This document shows, piece by piece, positions 1,649 to 37,286 of a stretch of 64,000 nt of DNA. Both the position numbers and the translations under genes were made by a program. Below the pieces are notes generated by a model. It had not been told where the DNA came from. It searched no databases and saw only the letters and a list, made by a program, of their open reading frames with translations. The stretch is from the sequence record PQ871103.1; one strand, written 5' to 3'. This DNA is from Escherichia phage vB_Eco_ZCEC15. The stretch's first letter is position 1. Every line of letters begins with the position of its first letter.

Positions 1649-4789
<3,141 letters not shown>

Positions 4790-4817
4790 TATTAAAGCAT
4801 ATTAAAGAGGATTAAAA

Positions 4818-6797
4818 ATGACTTTATTATCTCCGGGCATTGAGCTCAAAGAAACTACGGTTCAAAGCACCGTGGTTAATAACTCTACTGGTACAGCAGC
4901 TTTGGCCGGTAAATTCCAGTGGGGTCCTGCTTTTCAGATTAAACAGGTTACAAACGAAGTAGATTTAGTTAATACTTTTGGTCAACCTACAGCTGAAACT
5001 GCTGACTATTTTATGTCTGCAATGAATTTCTTACAATATGGAAATGATTTGCGAGTTGTGCGCGCTGTCGATAGAGATACCGCTAAAAACTCATCTCCGA
5101 TTGCTGGTAATATTGAATACACAATTTCTACCCCAGGTAGTAACTACGCGGTTGGAGATAAAATCACGGTCAAATATGTTTCAGAAGATGTTGAAACAGA
5201 AGGTAAAATTACCGAAGTAGATGCTGATGGAAAAATTAAGAAAATTAATATTCCTACTGCAAAAATTATTGCTAAAGCTAAAGAAGTTGGCGAATACCCA
5301 ACATTAGGTTCTAACTGGACTGCAGAAATTTCTTCGTCTTCCTCTGGTTTAGCTGCAGTAATAACTCTTGGAAAAATTATTACTGATTCTGGTATTTTAT
5401 TAGCTGAAATTGAAAATGCTGAAGCTGCTATGACAGCTGTTGACTTTCAAGCAAGTCTCGAAAAATATGGAATTCCAGGAGTAGTAGCTCTTTATCCAGG
5501 TGAGTTGGGCGATAAAATTGAAATTGAAATCGTATCTAAAGCTGACTACGCAAAAGGGGCTTCTGCATTACTCCCAATTTATCCAGGTGGCGGAACACGC
5601 GCATCTACTGCCAAAGCAGTGTTTGGATATGGACCACAAACTGACTCGCAATACGCTATTATAGTTCGTCGCAATGATGCTATTGTTCAAAGCGTTGTTC
5701 TTTCAACGAAGCGTGGTGAAAAAGATATTTACGATAGTAACATCTATATTGATGACTTTTTCGCAAAAGGCGGTTCAGAATATATTTTTGCAACTGCACA
5801 AAACTGGCCAGAAGGCTTCTCTGGAATTTTAACTCTGTCTGGTGGATTATCATCAAATGCTGAAGTAACAGCAGGAGATTTGATGGAAGCTTGGGACTTC
5901 TTTGCTGACCGCGAATCTGTTGACGTTCAGTTGTTTATTGCGGGTTCTTGTGCCGGTGAATCTTTAGAAACAGCATCTACTGTCCAAAAACACGTCGTTT
6001 CAATTGGAGATGCTCGCCAAGATTGCTTAGTATTGTGCTCACCACCGCGTGAAACTGTTGTTGGAATTCCTGTAACTCGTGCTGTTGATAACTTAGTCAA
6101 TTGGAGAACCGCATCAGGTTCATACACTGATAATAACTTTAATATCAGTTCAACCTACGCAGCAATTGATGGTAACTACAAGTATCAGTATGACAAATAT
6201 AATGATGTAAATCGTTGGGTTCCATTAGCAGCTGACATTGCTGGTTTATGCGCGAGAACTGATAACGTTTCTCAGACTTGGATGTCTCCAGCTGGTTATA
6301 ATCGTGGCCAGATTCTTAACGTTATTAAACTTGCTATTGAAACTCGCCAAGCTCAGCGCGACCGTTTATATCAAGAAGCTATCAACCCAGTAACTGGTAC
6401 AGGTGGTGATGGTTACGTATTATATGGTGATAAAACAGCTACTTCTGTTCCTTCTCCATTTGATCGTATTAACGTTCGTCGTCTGTTTAATATGTTGAAA
6501 ACGAATATCGGACGTAGTTCAAAATATCGTTTGTTCGAATTAAACAACGCGTTTACTCGTTCATCATTCCGCACAGAAACTGCCCAGTACTTACAGGGAA
6601 TTAAAGCTCTCGGTGGAATTTATGAATATCGTGTAGTTTGCGATACAACAAATAATACTCCGTCAGTAATTGATAGAAATGAGTTTGTTGCAACATTCTA
6701 CATCCAACCGGCGCGCAGTATAAATTATATTACTTTGAATTTCGTCGCAACTGCTACTGGTGCAGACTTCGATGAGTTAACTGGTCTTGCAGGTTAA
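4818..6797 (+). CDS. 18: Tail sheath protein gp18
   Basis: 659 aa, same length as T4 gp18; position. Confidence 0.95.
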   Translation: MTLLSPGIELKETTVQSTVVNNSTGTAALAGKFQWGPAFQIKQVTNEVDLVNTFGQPTAETADYFMSAMNFLQYGNDLRVVRAVDRDTAKNSSPIAGNIEYTISTPGSNYAVGDKITVKYVSEDVETEGKITEVDADGKIKKINIPTAKIIAKAKEVGEYPTLGSNWTAEISSSSSGLAAVITLGKIITDSGILLAEIENAEAAMTAVDFQASLEKYGIPGVVALYPGELGDKIEIEIVSKADYAKGASALLPIYPGGGTRASTAKAVFGYGPQTDSQYAIIVRRNDAIVQSVVLSTKRGEKDIYDSNIYIDDFFAKGGSEYIFATAQNWPEGFSGILTLSGGLSSNAEVTAGDLMEAWDFFADRESVDVQLFIAGSCAGESLETASTVQKHVVSIGDARQDCLVLCSPPRETVVGIPVTRAVDNLVNWRTASGSYTDNNFNISSTYAAIDGNYKYQYDKYNDVNRWVPLAADIAGLCARTDNVSQTWMSPAGYNRGQILNVIKLAIETRQAQRDRLYQEAINPVTGTGGDGYVLYGDKTATSVPSPFDRINVRRLFNMLKTNIGRSSKYRLFELNNAFTRSSFRTETAQYLQGIKALGGIYEYRVVCDTTNNTPSVIDRNEFVATFYIQPARSINYITLNFVATATGADFDELTGLAG

Positions 6798-29279: not shown

Positions 29280-29333
29280 TCCTCATGTTATGTCAGTAAG
29301 ATTATTATAACACAACACGAGGGACTTGTAAAC
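29280..29333 (-). promoter_or_regulatory. Early promoter-leader cassette, copy 1 (-35 GTTTAC, 17-nt spacer, -10 TATAAT, leader to GAGGA)
   Basis: - strand GTTTACAAGTCCCTCGTGTTGTGTTATAATAATCTTACTGACATAACATGAGGA; identical 54-mer at 44848..44901. Confidence 0.7.
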
Positions 29334-31390
29334 TACATCTTGAACTTTTTAGACATTTCGTTGATGTTAACCAAAGAAGCCAAGATTTGAGAAACTTCGT
29401 TTTCCTCTTCTTTTGATTCTTCTACAAGGAATTGATTAAACCCAGCCATTGGACGAACTTCGCCAGTTTCCATTAGATGATCGCCATCATATACCGATTC
29501 TTCTAATTGTTCAGAAGGAGGAACGATTGTGCCTTCGATTAGATACTTGTTATAAGCAGTTTCTTTCATCATGTACGTGCTTACTTTATTAATCTTCAAC
29601 AAAATTCCACGCGGTAGAATAACTTCAGCTTCTGATGGAAATCCTGATAAATGACCTGGAACGATAACTTTGATTCGCTCAGCCCCTTTAATTACCATAC
29701 CTACGCTAGCTTCAGCATCTTCATTAGCATATGCAGAATGACTACCCATATGCATTAAATCTTCAGCATCAACAGAACCTTCTCCTTCACCAGAAAATAC
29801 TGCGCCGGAATCATCTAGAGCCATATAGTTTTTACCATGCTCACCGAAGATATTTGGTTTAAGCGACGTGGATACGAAGTTCTTGAAATAGAACATTTTA
29901 TTTTCAATATTATGACGTAAAGTTTTAAAAGTAACTTCTTGCCCACGATAAAGCGTAGTTCCTGGAGGAAGAACTGATCCTTTGGCGAATGCAGAATCCA
30001 GCGTCTCGATGTGTTTAATAGCTCGTTCAATGTATTCTTCACGGGTAGAATCTGGTTTACCCAAGAGGAACGAGTTCATTTCAACATATGAATCTGCACA
30101 ATAATCTTCAATTACATCAGACTCAGCCTGAGTCAGTCCTTTTGGAGTTACTTCGGTGCTTGCATATTCATACGCCTGAGCAGCAGATGCATTAATCAAT
30201 TTATAAATGCCATTCATGACAAATCGAATAATAGCTACCTTTTCGTCTGGTGTGGCTTTAGAACCTTTAACTAAATCATTGATAATTTTCTTAATAACAT
30301 CAAAGCTATTAGAAATATTAATGTCAGCGAGATCGCTCAAAATTTTATCGGTTTTATAATCAAAAAATTCTTTATTCTTTAAATATTCTTGAGAACCTTG
30401 ATGTGTTATATCGCTCTGCAGTCTGATAGACGGATCACGTAAACGTGCATGGGCCAATGCAATATCATTTCGGAAGCTTTCTAGTTCATAATCGTTAGAT
30501 TTAAAACGAGAAGCACTTCTCATACCACCGATAGCTCCTTTGCTGAAGTTTGAACCAATCTGAATAACGCCAGAGTTCATTGATCCTTCTGCTTTATATA
30601 CCGGAACTTTAGATTCAAACTCTTGATATTTCTTGGCAGCGAAGCTATCACCCTGTAGCGAAGCATCGACAGTAGAATATTGAGCTTGCGCTGCTAATCG
30701 ACGACTAATTTTAGTTTTCTGAATAACAGCTTGATCCGTGCGCTTATCATTTTCTAAAGCAACAGAAGCAGCAACAGCAACAGCTTTAGGAACAGCATTA
30801 CCTGTTTTAACATCTACATAAACATCACCAACCTTTGATTCAACTTTTGTGAATAACTCAGTTGAAATAGGAGGTACACCTGGAATGTCTTCTAAATTGG
30901 CATTTTTACGGTAAACCATAATATATGCATACTTTTTATCGTAATCCCAGATTTCCTTTAAAAGAACATATCGACCTGCTCCTTTAGTACGTACTAAACG
31001 GTCAGCAATAACTTGCATCTGACGAGCAGCGCCATTTGTTTTACTTTTTAGTACGCGGAATAGGCATGCGTCAATTTTATACTGTTTCATTGTTTGAAGA
31101 GCAGTATCAAAAACCGCATTAATGACACCAATTGGATTTCCACCCAAGTTTTTAAGTTTAACTAATGATAGTTTCTCATTAACACCTATCATTACGATAT
31201 GCATCATTTTATCGCCTGGCTTAACGTTTTTATTTGTATCACCGCCAGAGGTGTATGTACAAAATCTAAATCCAGGAAGCACGCTTTCTTCACCGGCTTG
31301 AATAGCAAAAATTTGAGGTATTTTATGCTTAGGATTTAAGTTAACAACCGGCGCCGAAGCGCCGTCAAATAATTCTGTAATAAGTTCCAT
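29333..31390 (-). CDS. Alt-like ADP-ribosyltransferase paralogue
   Basis: 685 aa; R-S-E ART motif (YRGQ, FVSTS, EAEVILPRG); N-terminus near-identical to upstream paralogue. Confidence 0.8.
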   Translation of the reverse strand: MELITELFDGASAPVVNLNPKHKIPQIFAIQAGEESVLPGFRFCTYTSGGDTNKNVKPGDKMMHIVMIGVNEKLSLVKLKNLGGNPIGVINAVFDTALQTMKQYKIDACLFRVLKSKTNGAARQMQVIADRLVRTKGAGRYVLLKEIWDYDKKYAYIMVYRKNANLEDIPGVPPISTELFTKVESKVGDVYVDVKTGNAVPKAVAVAASVALENDKRTDQAVIQKTKISRRLAAQAQYSTVDASLQGDSFAAKKYQEFESKVPVYKAEGSMNSGVIQIGSNFSKGAIGGMRSASRFKSNDYELESFRNDIALAHARLRDPSIRLQSDITHQGSQEYLKNKEFFDYKTDKILSDLADINISNSFDVIKKIINDLVKGSKATPDEKVAIIRFVMNGIYKLINASAAQAYEYASTEVTPKGLTQAESDVIEDYCADSYVEMNSFLLGKPDSTREEYIERAIKHIETLDSAFAKGSVLPPGTTLYRGQEVTFKTLRHNIENKMFYFKNFVSTSLKPNIFGEHGKNYMALDDSGAVFSGEGEGSVDAEDLMHMGSHSAYANEDAEASVGMVIKGAERIKVIVPGHLSGFPSEAEVILPRGILLKINKVSTYMMKETAYNKYLIEGTIVPPSEQLEESVYDGDHLMETGEVRPMAGFNQFLVEESKEEENEVSQILASLVNINEMSKKFKM

Positions 31391-31393
31391 GAT

Positions 31394-33490
31394 TTATCCT
31401 TGAACGAACTTGTAAGGCATGTTTGCAATATCTATGCAAGATGCAATAATTCCAAGAGATGATTCTACTTTTTGTTTAACATTTGATGAAACAAATGTTG
31501 CAAAGTCAACTCTGTCTTCTATTTCAATATCATCTGTCATTGCAACTACTTCACCAGTTTCCATTAGACTGTCACCGTCATAAATTACCGATTCGGTGAG
31601 TTCTTCTGTAGTCATAACTTCAGCTTGAATGAGTTTTGTATTATTAGATGTTGTTCCGTCATTATTAGAAGCATCAGTTATTTTATTAACTTTGACCATC
31701 AATCCGCGCGGCAGAATAACTTCAGCTTCTGTTGCTATTCCGAGACTTCCTGGATATACAACATTAACTTTATGAGCTCCATCAATTGCCCATCCTATTT
31801 GAACTTTAACGTATTCAGGATTTTCTTTATACGCTCTTATTTCATTTGGATTAATAGTTATTCCTTCTTCATTTTTATCAACTGTTAATTCATTACGAGC
31901 TTCTGGTTCTAAAAGACCAATACCAGCATGCGTAATTCCAAAACGTCCAAAAATGATAGGAGTTAAAGAAGTAGATACAAAATTTCTGAAATAGAACACT
32001 TTATTTTTAACTAGTGCTTCGTATATAGGAGCAGTCATGCTTTGAGCACGATAAACTGTAATGCCTTCTGGTATACGGTCACCATTTTCAAAGGCTGAAT
32101 CTAAATTATTTATCGCAGATTCAATTTCTTTTTCACTCATTACCTCATATCGTTCTGGATTGTAGCGACCTAAAAGAAGATTATTGATGTCAGTATATCC
32201 TGAACCACAATACTCTCTAATGCCGCGCTTTTGTGATGGAGTATATTTAGAACCATCACGAGCAATAGTAATATCAATCATTGGACCTGCACCAATTCCA
32301 GAAAAACTATAAATCATTCTTTTGAGGAATTTAGTTTTTGCTGCGTTCCAGGAATTTTTAGTTATTTCTTCCCAGACTTCATCTGTCTGTCCTTTACGAG
32401 TTTTATTATGTTTATCAAGCCAGTTATCTTTATATTCTTCAAATAATTGATTAACAACTGTTGCGTATTTCTCTAAACATTTTATTGAAGTAGTTGGTTC
32501 ATTTTTAATCGCATTAAGAATTACATCTTTAATTTTTTCAGAAACTTCATTAACCTCACTTTTTGAAAAGAATTTATAGTCATAATGAAGTTCATCTGCA
32601 GTTCCTTCAGCAATAATTTTTGCTGCCTTAGTTTTAGAAGCTAATGAATTAATTCCAAGCTTCATTTCTTCTGCTTCGGGAATTAAAGGAGCTGTAGCAG
32701 GTTTATTGAAATTAGCTGCGGTAGATTCATACTTCTGGAATAATTCACTTTCAAATCTAGAAGATTCCAATGATTGACTTTGTGCAATTGCTCTACGGGA
32801 AATTTTAACTTTAACGATTACAGCTTGGTCAGAACGTTTATCATTTTCTAGTGCAATAGATGCTGCAATTGCCTCATTTTTAGTTACTTGAGCTCCAGTA
32901 TCTTTATTGATATAAACATCACCGACTTTCGATTCAACTTTAGTAAAGAGCTCGGTACTAATTTCTGGAACTCCTGGAATGTCTTCTAATGATACATTTT
33001 TGCGATGTATAAGAATATATGCATACTTTTTATCATAATCCCAGAGTTCCTTAAGAAGGACGTATCTGCCACCTGAGCGACTACGGATAAGTCTATCAGC
33101 AATAACTTGAATTTGTCGAGCTTGACCAGCAGTTTTAGACTTAAGAATACGGAGCATACAGGCATCAATTTTATACTGACGCATTGTTTGCATTGCAACA
33201 GTAAAAACTGAATTGATATAATTAATTGGGCTTGGACCAAGACCTTTCAATTTAGCAATTGAACCTTTAGCAGTTAATGTAAAAGGAACAATATGCATCA
33301 TTTTATCGCCCATCTTTAAATCACGATTAGTATCACCTCCAGATGTATAGGTACATAAACGAAAGCCTGGTTGTTCAATTGCATCATCAACATGAACTGA
33401 AAAAATTTGTGGTATTTTCTTCTTTGGATTTAAGTTTGTAATCGGAAGAGTAGTATCTTCGTCAAATAATTCTGTAATGAGTTCCATCAT
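31394..33490 (-). CDS. alt: Alt ADP-ribosyltransferase (virion-packaged, modifies host RNA polymerase)
   Basis: 698 aa; R-S-E ART motif (YRAQ, FVSTS, EAEVILPRG); late promoter upstream. Confidence 0.8.
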   Translation of the reverse strand: MMELITELFDEDTTLPITNLNPKKKIPQIFSVHVDDAIEQPGFRLCTYTSGGDTNRDLKMGDKMMHIVPFTLTAKGSIAKLKGLGPSPINYINSVFTVAMQTMRQYKIDACMLRILKSKTAGQARQIQVIADRLIRSRSGGRYVLLKELWDYDKKYAYILIHRKNVSLEDIPGVPEISTELFTKVESKVGDVYINKDTGAQVTKNEAIAASIALENDKRSDQAVIVKVKISRRAIAQSQSLESSRFESELFQKYESTAANFNKPATAPLIPEAEEMKLGINSLASKTKAAKIIAEGTADELHYDYKFFSKSEVNEVSEKIKDVILNAIKNEPTTSIKCLEKYATVVNQLFEEYKDNWLDKHNKTRKGQTDEVWEEITKNSWNAAKTKFLKRMIYSFSGIGAGPMIDITIARDGSKYTPSQKRGIREYCGSGYTDINNLLLGRYNPERYEVMSEKEIESAINNLDSAFENGDRIPEGITVYRAQSMTAPIYEALVKNKVFYFRNFVSTSLTPIIFGRFGITHAGIGLLEPEARNELTVDKNEEGITINPNEIRAYKENPEYVKVQIGWAIDGAHKVNVVYPGSLGIATEAEVILPRGLMVKVNKITDASNNDGTTSNNTKLIQAEVMTTEELTESVIYDGDSLMETGEVVAMTDDIEIEDRVDFATFVSSNVKQKVESSLGIIASCIDIANMPYKFVQG

Positions 33491-33539: not shown

Positions 33540-33728
33540 TTAATAATCTATAGGTAAGAGAGTACGATATATTTCAAACTTTGGACCTTTTTCATAAGCA
33601 TCAAAAGTTTCTGTGAATTTATTATAAGCATATGCATCTATAAATTCAATCATAATTTGTGATACAGAAGTAGAAACATCTCCACCTTCTTTTTGAGCCA
33701 CGACAATTGTTTCTAAGTAAGCTTTCAT
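33540..33728 (-). CDS. Hypothetical protein
   Basis: 62-aa ORF overlapping ligase stop. Confidence 0.45.
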   Translation of the reverse strand: MKAYLETIVVAQKEGGDVSTSVSQIMIEFIDAYAYNKFTETFDAYEKGPKFEIYRTLLPIDY

Positions 33729-35185
33729 AGACCAGTTACCTCATGAAAATCACCAAATACATCCTCGAATGTATTAGCTTTAGTTTTATCTTCACGTAAA
33801 CGAATCGCAATCGGAAGAAATAATTTAACGTAATCAGTGCGGCCATCAGATTTTAACCAACCATTGCATTCACATTCTAGAATTTTTCCAATATAATAAT
33901 TTTGATTTTCCATAATGCGAGTACGGTCAAGTTCATGCGATTTTACACCGGCTTTATCTTTTAAGCCTGAACCAGCATTTACTTTAATTTTTCCACACTC
34001 TGATTCAAGAATAAATCCACCTGCTTTAGTAGGGTCTTTACGGTGAGGATAAATTCCTACAATTTTTAAATCAACATCAATTACTTCTTTAAATTTATAA
34101 AGATTTTTTGAACGAGCATTTTCCCACAATCCATCGGTATTTTTGAGAATAATACCTTCAAGACCTTGGTCAATATATTTTTTATAAATTACCTTAGCTT
34201 CATCTAGGTTATTTACTACCTGGTTTTCAATTAAAATTACTTTATCATATCCTGACGTCATTTGTTCTAATTTAGAAAAACGTACATCATATTTTAAACG
34301 AAACGCCGGAAGACCGTATATTTCTACCAACGGGACATAATCCCAGACCTGAAACTTCATGCATTTGGCTTCTTTTTCTGAAATAGTTCCCTTTAAAGAT
34401 TTATTGGCGATTCCATTAGAAGCAGTACGTGATTCAGCTACTTCGGCAAACTCTTTAACTTTACTATTTTCAGGAGCGTCAAAAAGAAAATCTAGGCCTT
34501 CTGGCTCCTTTTCAACTTGCTCGTGGTATACCAATTCGCCATCAATTAACACACCTTCTGGATGAATCTGGCGGGCTTCTGCAGTCATTTTGATTAACTC
34601 TTCCTTAAGAAGATCTAATCCTAGATATTCATTACCAGCTCGTGATAAAAGACGAACATCATCTAATTCATCACCTCGGACTTCAGCAAAACACCGAGCT
34701 CCATCTGCTTTTAACTGTGCAAAGGCTGGAAATTTGATATTCTTACTAATGCCTTTTTCATCATAAGAACTTGCCAGCATTTGAGGTTGTTCAGGAATTA
34801 AACCTGGCCAAACTTTATTTGCAATAGATACCGAAGCACCACATTCAAGGTCTCGCATCATAACTCGACGCAAAACTTCAACATCATCCTTTTTACCATC
34901 AGTGATATATCCAGTTAATTCCTCAATTGCAGCATTTCCAGTCAATTTCCGAGTAGCTAACGTGAATTCAATGAAGTCAAGCATATCGGTAATAGTCAGC
35001 ATTCCAAAACTCTGGGTAGAAATACCAGGTTTAGGCCATTTCTTGATATAATACTGTAACCCACGAGAATAAGTCAGACGATATACTCTTTTAAGCAATT
35101 CATTATCTTTATTCTTTTCAAGAATTGCTTGCTTCTGCTTAGTTGATCCAATAGATGCTATTTCATTCAGAATTTTAAGAATCAT
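33725..35185 (-). CDS. 30: ATP-dependent DNA ligase gp30
   Basis: 486 aa; adenylation motif KADGARC (KxDG). Confidence 0.95.
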   Translation of the reverse strand: MILKILNEIASIGSTKQKQAILEKNKDNELLKRVYRLTYSRGLQYYIKKWPKPGISTQSFGMLTITDMLDFIEFTLATRKLTGNAAIEELTGYITDGKKDDVEVLRRVMMRDLECGASVSIANKVWPGLIPEQPQMLASSYDEKGISKNIKFPAFAQLKADGARCFAEVRGDELDDVRLLSRAGNEYLGLDLLKEELIKMTAEARQIHPEGVLIDGELVYHEQVEKEPEGLDFLFDAPENSKVKEFAEVAESRTASNGIANKSLKGTISEKEAKCMKFQVWDYVPLVEIYGLPAFRLKYDVRFSKLEQMTSGYDKVILIENQVVNNLDEAKVIYKKYIDQGLEGIILKNTDGLWENARSKNLYKFKEVIDVDLKIVGIYPHRKDPTKAGGFILESECGKIKVNAGSGLKDKAGVKSHELDRTRIMENQNYYIGKILECECNGWLKSDGRTDYVKLFLPIAIRLREDKTKANTFEDVFGDFHEVTGL

Positions 35186-35451
35186 TGCTCATCCTTCAAG
35201 GTTTGGTTTACAGCTCTATTATAAATCAATTCATCATTAAGCTCAGGCAAAGACCTATGATATGTAGTTCTAACTTTATTTCCTTGCATCCAGTGCTTAA
35301 CGTAAATGAAACCTTGCTCTACACATTTTTTAAAAATTCGTTCGTCTTTTTGAGCTCGGAATTCTGGATTGCATCTAAAAAATTGATTTACGTGACCGTA
35401 ATCACGTGTAGTATTACCTTCATTTTCATAAATAGTGTGAACGACAAACAT
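35182..35451 (-). CDS. Hypothetical protein (30.1-like)
   Basis: 89-aa ORF in ligase operon. Confidence 0.55.
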   Translation of the reverse strand: MFVVHTIYENEGNTTRDYGHVNQFFRCNPEFRAQKDERIFKKCVEQGFIYVKHWMQGNKVRTTYHRSLPELNDELIYNRAVNQTLKDEQ

Positions 35452-36290
35452 TAGAATGCTCCTTGGAAAATATTATCACCGCTAGTAGGTCTATTATACA
35501 AATACTCTATGCCACCAGGTTTAATATAGTTCCATGTCTGAAATGGATGTGTCTGATATGGATGATATAGATGATTATAAGGATTAAATCCAGGCGTTCT
35601 CCAGGTAGTGTTCCAAGGAAAAGAATCGTTTTTAACCATCTTCTCAATTAAATCTTTTATAGCTTTTTCACTATCAAAACTTTCTTTATTTTCCTTCGGC
35701 GAAAAAAGCTTATTTTCTACATCATTCCATGTATAAACTCGCTGAGCAGTTTTTGGAATATTGTCACGCTCTCCTCGAGCCATCCAATAAACAGGAACAT
35801 TTAATATTTCACTCGCATGATCGCAGTGATGAGCGAGATCGTCAATATAACAAATTACGTTATATTTCTCTTTTGCCTTTTTAAACAACTCTTCTTTTGA
35901 AGAATCATGACCACACATCATTACTTCTGAGAAGGCACCAGGAAAAAGAGCATTCAAATTAAATTGACGATTCAACAGAGCGTCAATAGAATCACCCAAT
36001 GCTGTGACAGCTACAAAATTATAATCTTCTTTTAATTTGTTAATTACACACAGTGCATCTTTATATGGAGACAAGTAACGAATAAAATCTGATCGATTAT
36101 ATTTTTCAATTAGCTTGACACCAAGTTCTTCATCACAATTAAAGAGTTTACCTGGAGAAATAAATTTCTCATCTTGGATCATTTTTAAAATATGTTCTAA
36201 CGGAAGATTATATTTCTGAGCAAAATAAGGAAGACCTGATTGCCAGCTTAAACATACTCCATCAATATCAGTTAAAATAGTAGGCTTCAT
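35451..36290 (-). CDS. HAD-superfamily hydrolase-like protein (30.2-like)
   Basis: 279 aa; N-terminal LTDIDGV (DxDGx HAD motif I). Confidence 0.6.
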   Translation of the reverse strand: MKPTILTDIDGVCLSWQSGLPYFAQKYNLPLEHILKMIQDEKFISPGKLFNCDEELGVKLIEKYNRSDFIRYLSPYKDALCVINKLKEDYNFVAVTALGDSIDALLNRQFNLNALFPGAFSEVMMCGHDSSKEELFKKAKEKYNVICYIDDLAHHCDHASEILNVPVYWMARGERDNIPKTAQRVYTWNDVENKLFSPKENKESFDSEKAIKDLIEKMVKNDSFPWNTTWRTPGFNPYNHLYHPYQTHPFQTWNYIKPGGIEYLYNRPTSGDNIFQGAF

Positions 36291-36745
36291 AGAGAGTCTC
36301 TTAATAGGTTTAACACATCAATAAATTCAGCTTCGGTTAGTATTGTATCATCTTTTGTTAGACCACTAGCCATGCTGTGCTTCAAAACTTTTCCTTTCGA
36401 GGCTTGTAATGCATCGCGAAAGCCCTTGTTTTGGAACGCTGCTTCAAAATATGCATTTGTGTATAATTCTTTCCACGCTGGAGAGTATCTTGAAAACGGA
36501 ACTCCAAGCCAGAAGAGGGTCCCACGGTCCTGAGCTCTAGCATAAGACCTTCCAGCTTGTTGGGCGGCAAGCCCGGATAACCCAAATATACGTCTTTGCT
36601 GTTCAACATTTTTCACCTTACATCCTTGGAGGAATCCTTCGAGACCTCCAAATTGAATGTCATCCATAACGAAAGGCCATTGGGCGAAATTACTTAATGC
36701 ACATGATGGCCATTTAAAATTGCTTCTAATCTCTAACTCAGACAT
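36287..36745 (-). CDS. NADAR/YbiA (DUF1768)-like protein (30.3-like)
   Basis: 152 aa; LSNF...PF...D..F.S.E...Q..K and C-terminal segments resemble NADAR fold; by eye only. Confidence 0.5.
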   Translation of the reverse strand: MSELEIRSNFKWPSCALSNFAQWPFVMDDIQFGGLEGFLQGCKVKNVEQQRRIFGLSGLAAQQAGRSYARAQDRGTLFWLGVPFSRYSPAWKELYTNAYFEAAFQNKGFRDALQASKGKVLKHSMASGLTKDDTILTEAEFIDVLNLLRDSL

Positions 36746-36953
36746 CTTTAATACTTATAATTTCAATATCAGCCCAATGACCGTAACTTGGTAAACGGTC
36801 TTCAATAGATAATCCGCCATCATATTTAAGCATTTTAATTGTCATAATATATGGCTCTAAATGGTCTTCAGTGAGCGGAGAGACATCAGTCACACGATAA
36901 GTAACTTCGACCATTTCCGTGCCCAGTAATTTCTTGATTAATTTCTTAAACAT
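36738..36953 (-). CDS. Hypothetical protein
   Basis: 71-aa ORF. Confidence 0.5.
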   Translation of the reverse strand: MFKKLIKKLLGTEMVEVTYRVTDVSPLTEDHLEPYIMTIKMLKYDGGLSIEDRLPSYGHWADIEIISIKDV

Positions 36954-37245: not shown

Positions 37246-37286
37246 AGTATTTTCCTCAGTAAGGGGCCGAAGCCCCTCATTTTATT

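Follow-up and report, generated by a model that had tools for sequence, protein, structure and literature searches.

Genes 30.3 and 30.2 of this T4-like phage are adjacent early genes that, with a probability of about 0.8, do separate jobs: 30.3 encodes the anti-DarTG1 enzyme AdfN, and 30.2 encodes an NT5C-like HAD phosphatase. Both open reading frames are present in the window (the whole stretch of 64,000 nucleotides that was analysed) where the preliminary description had placed them. Their products are nearly identical to T4 gp30.3 (148 of 152 residues, 97%, at equal length) and T4 gp30.2 (271 of 279 residues, 97%), which confirms that observation. Both are real, conserved genes: each occurs in approximately 1,450-1,500 phage records, and their counts per genus are almost the same. 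The earlier annotation was accurate and its suggestion of a role in counter-defence was correct, yet both are largely known: the NADAR/AdfN half was published in 2024-2025.

The two genes are part of a compact array on the minus strand, in the order 30.4, 30.3, 30.2, 30.1, gene 30 (DNA ligase), alt.1 and two Alt-like genes. These gene names agree in the syntenic records of T4 and one annotated relative, and many Tequatrovirus (T4-like) genomes are 97-98% identical to the 5-kb region around the two genes. adfN (T4 gene 30.3; 36287-36745, 152 aa) encodes the orphan NADAR-family protein, a predicted DNA ADP-ribosylglycohydrolase. Directly upstream of it, and overlapping it by 8 nt, is gene 30.4 (36738-36953, 71 aa). 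Downstream is 30.2 (35451-36290 for the whole ORF in the ORF list, 279 aa), followed by 30.1 (35182-35451), a DUF3045 gene (Pfam PF11243, E 1.6e-63) that lies between the HAD gene and the gene for the ATP-dependent DNA ligase (gene 30; 33725-35185, from the ORF and the annotation of a syntenic record). Two tandem genes for Alt-like ADP-ribosyltransferases of 685 and 698 aa (29333-33490, comprising 29333-31390 and 31394-33490) are found beyond the ligase gene. Codons are shared at the junctions of 30.3 with 30.2 (ATGA), 30.2 with 30.1 (TAATG) and 30.1 with the ligase gene (ATGA). Because start and stop overlap at every junction from 30.4 to ligase, these genes make up a single, tightly packed unit of transcription and translation. 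A scan of the operon for promoters and terminators gave counts no higher than expected from shuffled sequence, and PADLOC, run on the four surrounding proteins, returned no matches. There is no NADAR-adjacent DarT1 toxin at the locus, as there would be in a DarTG1 layout; the neighbours of adfN are 30.4 and 30.2. adfN in the window is thus an orphan antitoxin-like gene, as AdfN was described.

The 152-aa protein is a NADAR protein, based on family profiles, fold comparison and near-identity to a characterised protein. It matches the Pfam family PF08010 (Phage_30_3; E 2e-68), and it does not match the Pfam NADAR model PF08719 at E<=1. Searching PDB sequences and NCBIfam with the 152-aa and 279-aa proteins as single sequences yielded nothing of use. 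Since neither window protein matches a Pfam NADAR, HAD or NT5C model at E<=1, both were placed through transitive profile links and predicted structures. The profile searches proposed as a check came out differently at the two levels: family profiles placed the proteins with NADAR and HAD, and the generic Pfam models did not match the window proteins at that threshold. A database search for adfN found 101 homologues, several of which are annotated as YbiA or DUF1768 in their source records and one of which carries both PF08010 and PF08719. PF08719 is matched by 28 of 73 members of the adfN family on their own, with a best E of 1.5e-7. When the adfN family profile was compared with the PDB, the top match was E. 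coli YbiA (E 0.0026), and the alignment pairs the SNF and E-x3-Q-x2-K motifs exactly.

The predicted structure bears out the resemblance to NADAR/YbiA proteins that had been noticed by eye. The AlphaFold2 model of AdfN from the window (pLDDT 93, pTM 0.89) has an alpha-helical core flanked by two small beta-sheets, and Foldseek places it in the NADAR fold. Its best match in the PDB is YbiA (2b3w; E 1.7e-5, TM 0.68), followed in ranks 2 and 3 by a DarG1-type NADAR from Geobacter lovleyi (8bat) and a Phytophthora NADAR (PnNADAR) with ADP-ribose (8bau). All three matches have a probability of at least 0.99, and the lower-ranked matches are noise.

The residues that matter for catalysis are retained. 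In an alignment of 73 adfN sequences, the invariant residues are S18-N19-F20, E36, Q40, K43, R86 and H123. The codons of E36, K43 and the phage-type H123 are at 36638-36640, 36617-36619 and 36377-36379, respectively, on the minus strand. The catalytic residues and guanine specificity of NADARs were defined in two studies (Schuller et al., PMC11543638; Toxins 2024, PMC11125620). A glutamate and a lysine bind the distal ribose and phosphate, E43 and K50 in PnNADAR and E36 and K43 in AdfN (PMC11543638, PMC11825919). The residue in the last strand is Glu in YbiA, Asp in DarG1 and His in the NADARs of the phage gp30.3 type, and the invariant H123 puts the window protein in this phage subtype as defined previously (PMC11543638, PMC11125620). 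The window protein differs from T4 AdfN by four substitutions (window residue first: K11R, D29G, F104I and M125I), and its C-terminal helix (aa 138-151) is intact. Because E36, K43 and H123 are retained and the protein is full length, we consider it an intact adfN orthologue.

The function of AdfN has been worked out in T4. Resistance of T-even phages to DarTG1 was mapped to gene 30.3, which was renamed adfN (Johannesman et al., Nat Commun 2025, PMC11825919). Purified T4 AdfN strips ADP-ribose from DarT1-modified DNA, and the E36A and K43A substitutions weaken it (PMC11825919). [quoted passage not shown] NADAR activity has been demonstrated on ADP-ribose linked to guanine, and not to thymidine, in DNA (PMC11543638, PMC11125620, PMC11825919), and hydrolysis of guanine-N2-ADP-ribose on DNA has been found both in vitro and in vivo for the T4 protein that is 97% identical to the one described here (PMC11825919, PMC11125620). 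Insertions in 30.3 were also lost under DarTG1 in an independent T4 transposon-sequencing preprint (10.1101/2025.11.20.689424). Thus, the counter-defence role that had been suggested from the locus is established for T4 AdfN against DarT1 (PMC11825919, PMC11125620), and by orthology AdfN of the window probably has the same activity. In the likely sequence of events, host DarT1 would attach ADP-ribose to guanine N2 in phage DNA and so block replication. AdfN would then hydrolyse the N-glycosidic bond and restore the base, using E36 and K43, with H123 probably substituting for the Glu or Asp of other NADARs. T4 AdfN does not rescue cells from DarT1 toxicity outside of T-even infection (PMC11825919). 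Because it is fully effective only in T-even infection, an additional phage factor has been postulated (PMC11825919).

The membership of gp30.2 in the HAD superfamily is secure, based on motifs, transitive profiles and predicted structure. The protein opens with the HAD motif LTDIDGV, as had been noted, and its residues follow the pattern of the superfamily (DxDx[TV] in motif I, S/T in II, K in III, and DD or GDxxxD in IV): D8-x-D10 (36261-36269) in motif I, T96 in motif II, K132 in motif III and D150-D151 in motif IV. A near-invariant tryptophan, W16, comes after motif I. The residues of all four motifs are conserved among the 100 homologues listed; D8 and D10 are invariant among 62 homologues, and conservation is at least 90% at T96 and D150. 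In a wider alignment of 78 sequences, which reaches down to approximately 22% identity, D8, D10, K132 and D151 still do not vary, and T96 is near-invariant. D10, the second aspartate of motif I, is a mark of phosphotransferases.

In the model of gp30.2, a very confident Rossmannoid core is interrupted after motif I by a helical cap (pLDDT ~97 over aa 1-190); where a HAD-like hydrolase had been proposed, structure prediction yielded a capped HAD protein. The catalytic domain (aa 1-195; 35706-36290, minus strand) has the features of a HAD-superfamily phosphatase, and its large helical C1 cap (aa 12-85) sits over the active site in the model. Foldseek found 110 PDB matches at E<1e-3, and the best 50 of the 110 are HAD-superfamily entries. 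Among the matches listed, the top target-normalised TM-scores are those of 3bwv, which is deoxyribonucleotidase-like (0.71), and of the cytosolic 5'(3')-deoxyribonucleotidase cdN (0.63-0.67), and these NT5C-like folds are just slightly ahead of other capped HADs (YfnB and haloacid dehalogenases).

Profiles point in the same direction. An exhaustive profile search gathered 1,343 cluster representatives of the gp30.2 family, mostly of about 200 aa. The top PDB match of the widened profile is 3bwv, a putative 5'(3')-deoxyribonucleotidase from S. epidermidis, at E 8.7e-6 and over the full length; further matches, at E up to about 0.01, include Sdt1/SSM1 and an XMP phosphatase, which act on nucleotides. 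Three distant family members that were scanned exceed the gathering score of Pfam NT5C (PF06941; 24.8 bits). Among the 62 close homologues, PF06941 has 13 weak matches (best 1.2e-4), and PF00702 and PF13419 have 14 and 9 (best E 3.5e-4). The Pfam HAD models (PF00702 and PF13419), NT5C and NCBIfam do not match gp30.2 of the window itself. The protein belongs to PHROG 420, and it weakly matches the PHROG family of polynucleotide kinase (E 0.002). In an alignment to cdN, W16 of gp30.2 occupies the position of the phenylalanine after motif I, which in cdN stacks on the base. An affiliation with NT5C-like enzymes is therefore probable.

We postulate that gp30.2 is a Mg2+-dependent HAD phosphatase in which D8 would be the nucleophile and D10 the acid/base, with a four-helix cap that would enclose a small substrate. 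Since gp30.2 is closest to the 5'(3')-deoxyribonucleotidases, its most likely substrate for dephosphorylation is a (deoxy)nucleoside monophosphate or another small phosphoester of this kind. The NT5C-like fold matches are barely above those of other capped HADs, and so the case for a nucleotide substrate is weak. Homologues of gp30.2 sit amid phage replication and repair genes, and the fold and neighbourhood suggest that gp30.2 may serve a DNA/nucleotide-metabolism module of the phage beside DNA ligase. Searches of the literature by name, locus tag and accession found no work on gp30.2, and no biochemical report on its homologues.

Beyond the catalytic domain, gp30.2 has a C-terminal tail (aa 196-279 plus the stop codon; 35451-35705, minus strand) with one predicted helix (aa 207-220) followed by a disordered stretch rich in aromatic residues and proline; pLDDT is below 50 for aa 228-231 and 240-279. 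Some homologues lack the tail, and it varies among the others. It contains a short motif, GGIEYLYNRPT, and the pattern GIEY..QPT recurs in 14 of 100 homologues listed. Pfam found no informative extra domain in fusion proteins of the gp30.2 family of 591, 660, 430 and 365 aa.

Gene neighbourhoods were compared in two sets, one of 80 viral loci seeded with gp30.2 and one of 80 loci seeded with adfN, the latter forming 43 clusters at 80% identity. In the first set, 69 loci have DNA ligase as the next gene downstream of the gp30.2 homologue, and 75 have it anywhere at the locus. In 37 loci, which come from diverged T4-like phages, the HAD gene is directly preceded on its own strand by adfN, and gene 30.1 is present in just 24. 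Thus, gp30.2 tracks ligase (69/80) more than it tracks adfN (37/80). In the second set, a gp30.2-like gene is near adfN in 6 of the 43 clusters and there is none nearby in the other 37. The ligase gene is near adfN in 7 clusters, and no other neighbour family is more recurrent. Two ORFs of 254 and 199 aa that neighbour distant adfN homologues gave hhalign probabilities below 1% when compared with HAD, and a relaxed HMM search added a single divergent HAD gene beside adfN. In several complete T4-like genomes, adfN and the HAD gene are approximately 55 kb apart, and the HAD gene remains beside ligase. Because adfN and gp30.2 are both near-universal in Straboviridae, their co-occurrence is uninformative. 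The attachment of gp30.2 to ligase could reflect function, or it could just be conserved T4-like gene order.

Published tables of T4 Tn-seq bear on whether the neighbours of adfN contribute to its function. The sheets used are those for LB, M9 and DarTG1; the DarTG1 sheet is Data S6, which was identified by its position two before Data S8. Under DarTG1, where its disruption is lethal, 30.3 is depleted with a log2FC of -7.25, whereas 30.2 has a log2FC of -0.12 (p 0.61, 71 TA sites) and alt a log2FC of -0.01. Insertions in adfN have no cost without DarTG1, and insertions in 30.2 are found at 72 of 72 TA sites in LB and are neutral in M9. Since 30.2 is neutral where 30.3 drops, AdfN does not require gp30.2 as a partner to counter DarTG1, and joint action of the two genes in counter-defence is not supported. 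Likewise, the neutrality of alt indicates that Alt is not involved. The data argue that the phage factor needed by AdfN is neither gp30.2 nor Alt. Gene 30.4 is mildly depleted under DarTG1 (log2FC -1.79, adjusted p 0.014), which could be due to an effect on adfN translation, given the 8-nt overlap of the genes, or to a genuine helper role.

The proximity of adfN to the Alt genes had led to the proposal of a writer/eraser pairing, in which AdfN reverses ADP-ribosylation by the phage's own nearby Alt (or by ModA/ModB). We consider this extremely unlikely. adfN and 30.2 are within about 3 kb of the two Alt paralogues in a common early region, and NADARs of T4-like phages are expressed early together with ARTs (Iyer et al., PMC9503650). 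However, Alt is near adfN in just 4 of the 43 adfN lineages, T4 adfN insertions are costless without DarTG1, and alt insertions are neutral with it. Moreover, Alt is well established to modify protein arginines, whereas the substrate demonstrated for NADARs, as described above, is guanine-linked ADP-ribose in DNA. The pairing is unsupported, its sole basis being proximity in Tequatrovirus-type genomes. It is also very unlikely that gp30.2 is a T-even-specific helper of AdfN, or that it processes a phosphoribosyl remnant or the ADP-ribose that AdfN sets free, so that 30.3 and 30.2 form a two-enzyme repair cassette. Several observations would fit such a cassette: the ATGA overlap of the two genes, the 37 gp30.2 loci with adfN directly upstream, the near-identical taxonomic distribution of both genes, and the need of T4 AdfN for a further T-even factor. 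The co-distribution is explained by near-universality in Straboviridae, though, and the separation of the genes by ~55 kb in many T4-like genomes, with the HAD gene still beside ligase, argues against a cassette. We rejected gp30.2 as the missing helper of AdfN, as 30.2 is neutral under DarTG1 and 37 of the 43 adfN lineages lack a HAD gene nearby.

Other readings concern the substrates of the two enzymes. The location of the HAD gene directly upstream of ligase, often with overlapping codons, would suit a DNA-end 3'-phosphatase, similar to the HAD domain of PNKP, that makes nicks ready for the neighbouring DNA ligase. The weak match to the polynucleotide kinase PHROG agrees with this, and NT5C-type enzymes are established to accept 3'-phosphates too. 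We nevertheless find it unlikely, since the model of gp30.2 has a large helical C1 cap, and in the HAD superfamily such caps accompany small-molecule substrates, whereas DNA 3'-phosphatases are capless. In addition, T4 already has this activity in PseT (Pnk), and there is no PNKP-type phosphatase among the top PDB fold or profile matches. A more speculative scheme, which we think quite unlikely, is that gp30.2 is not a housekeeping nucleotidase but a ligase-linked phosphatase for phosphoesters that arise from damage or defence (e.g., an immune signalling nucleotide, or an adduct of a nucleotide or phosphoribosyl group), with its conserved C-terminal peptide GIEY..QPT docking it to the replication/repair machinery, and that, separately, gp30.4 and not gp30.2 is the T-even factor needed by AdfN. 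We are similarly doubtful that the main substrates of AdfN are small molecules, either immune signals derived from ADP-ribose or, as for YbiA, intermediates of the riboflavin pathway, with DNA repair secondary. Phage NADARs have been proposed to prefer soluble ADP-ribose derivatives (Iyer et al., PMC9503650), the nearest fold match is YbiA, and in the phage clade a His takes the place of the acidic residue in the last strand. Against this stand the direct de-ADP-ribosylation of DarT1-modified DNA by purified T4 AdfN, the phenotypes of E36A and K43A, and the specificity of the Tn-seq loss for DarTG1.

We therefore favour separate jobs for the two neighbours. adfN has the makings of a textbook example: a lytic phage reverses a DNA modification made by its host with an enzyme that resembles an antitoxin but is an orphan. 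gp30.2 is an ordinary-looking HAD phosphatase that is dispensable in the laboratory and that is found in more than 1,400 phage genomes, nearly always next to DNA ligase.

The closest known systems resemble the two proteins to different degrees. AdfN of the window is like T4 AdfN (PMC11825919) in 148 of 152 residues, length, E36/K43/H123, the intact C-terminal helix and the position between 30.4 and 30.2. The loci differ in the four substitutions and, upstream, in 30.4, which in the window is a divergent allele (gp30.4 is 49% identical to that of T4), and in 30.5, which is absent. With the NADAR antitoxins of the DarG1/BC4488 type and with YbiA (8bat, 8bau and 2b3w), AdfN shares the fold, the Glu and Lys residues that bind ADP-ribose and, from the literature, the guanine-ADPr hydrolase chemistry. 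In contrast to these proteins, AdfN of the window is without the N-terminal extension, has His rather than Asp or Glu in the last strand, and is only 16-17% identical. Furthermore, it is an orphan with no adjacent DarT toxin, and in uninfected cells its T4 counterpart does not serve as an antitoxin. gp30.2 resembles the NT5C family (cdN, mdN and 3bwv; PF06941) in its capped HAD fold, in the DxDGV motif I with an aromatic residue after it, in the T/S of motif II, the K of motif III and the DD of motif IV, and in the full-length profile match to 3bwv. It differs from that family in falling below every Pfam HAD/NT5C threshold, in an extra disordered tail of approximately 85 aa, and in its conserved position upstream of a phage DNA ligase gene.

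Among the 80 viral loci seeded with gp30.2 (L090-L169), an ATP-dependent DNA ligase gene lies directly downstream of the gene for this predicted HAD-fold phosphatase in 69, often with overlapping codons, and adfN, the orthologue of T4 gene 30.3, is present at only 37. Gene 30.1 separates the HAD gene from the ligase gene at only 24 of the 80. At L052, on a viral contig of 166 kb, adfN is immediately preceded by a divergent ORF of the gp30.2 type (4709-5305 and 5980-6453), which matches the gp30.2 family profile with an E value of 1e-19. The order of these two genes in T4 is the opposite of that in L052.

The tail of gp30.2 (residues 196-279; window 35451-35705, minus strand) is predicted to be disordered, and the tails of its homologues cannot be aligned. 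Even so, one short motif stands out in it: G-(T)-G-I-E-Y-x3-(Q/R)-P-T, seen in 14 of the 100 homologues listed, could be a docking peptide.

gp30.4, encoded directly upstream of adfN (window 36738-36953, minus strand), is just 49% identical to T4 gp30.4, in contrast to the adjacent 30.3 and 30.2, which are 97% identical to those of T4, and gene 30.5 is absent from the window (30.4 region and junction to 36958). The divergent 30.4 and missing 30.5 (36738-36953 and the junction to 36958) mark a local mosaic replacement. In published T4 Tn-seq data, 30.4 was mildly depleted under DarTG1 (log2FC -1.79, adjusted p 0.014), either because insertions in it affect the coupled adfN gene or because gp30.4 is a genuine helper; both readings are possible. 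Farther along, a GC-rich hairpin, AGGGGCCGAAGCCCCT (window 37262-37277), lies between genes 30.7 and 30.6, just 5' of the 30.6 ribosome-binding site; in a terminator scan its terminator-like score was on the plus strand only.

T4 gp30.3 is 152 residues long, whereas a construct described as "E. coli T4 phage NADAR (gp30.3; residues 1-208)" was cloned in a 2024 study in Toxins (methods; PMC11125620). The longer construct may contain additional sequence, or its source may be a different T4-like phage. The AdfN match to the PHROG 652 profile is confined to positions 126-272 of 296, which also points to longer members of the family.

adfN also contains an alternative-frame ORF of 75 amino acids (window 36382-36609, minus strand), open in the window as well; the T4 record names its equivalent 30.3' ("internal translation, in a different reading frame"). 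Another comparison with T4 concerns the Alt-like ADP-ribosyltransferases. The window has two full-length paralogues in tandem on the minus strand (29333-31390, 685 amino acids; 31394-33490, 698 amino acids), whereas T4 has a single alt gene accompanied by two short remnants, alt.-1 and alt.-2; the T4 annotation attributes these to a partial duplication of old date.
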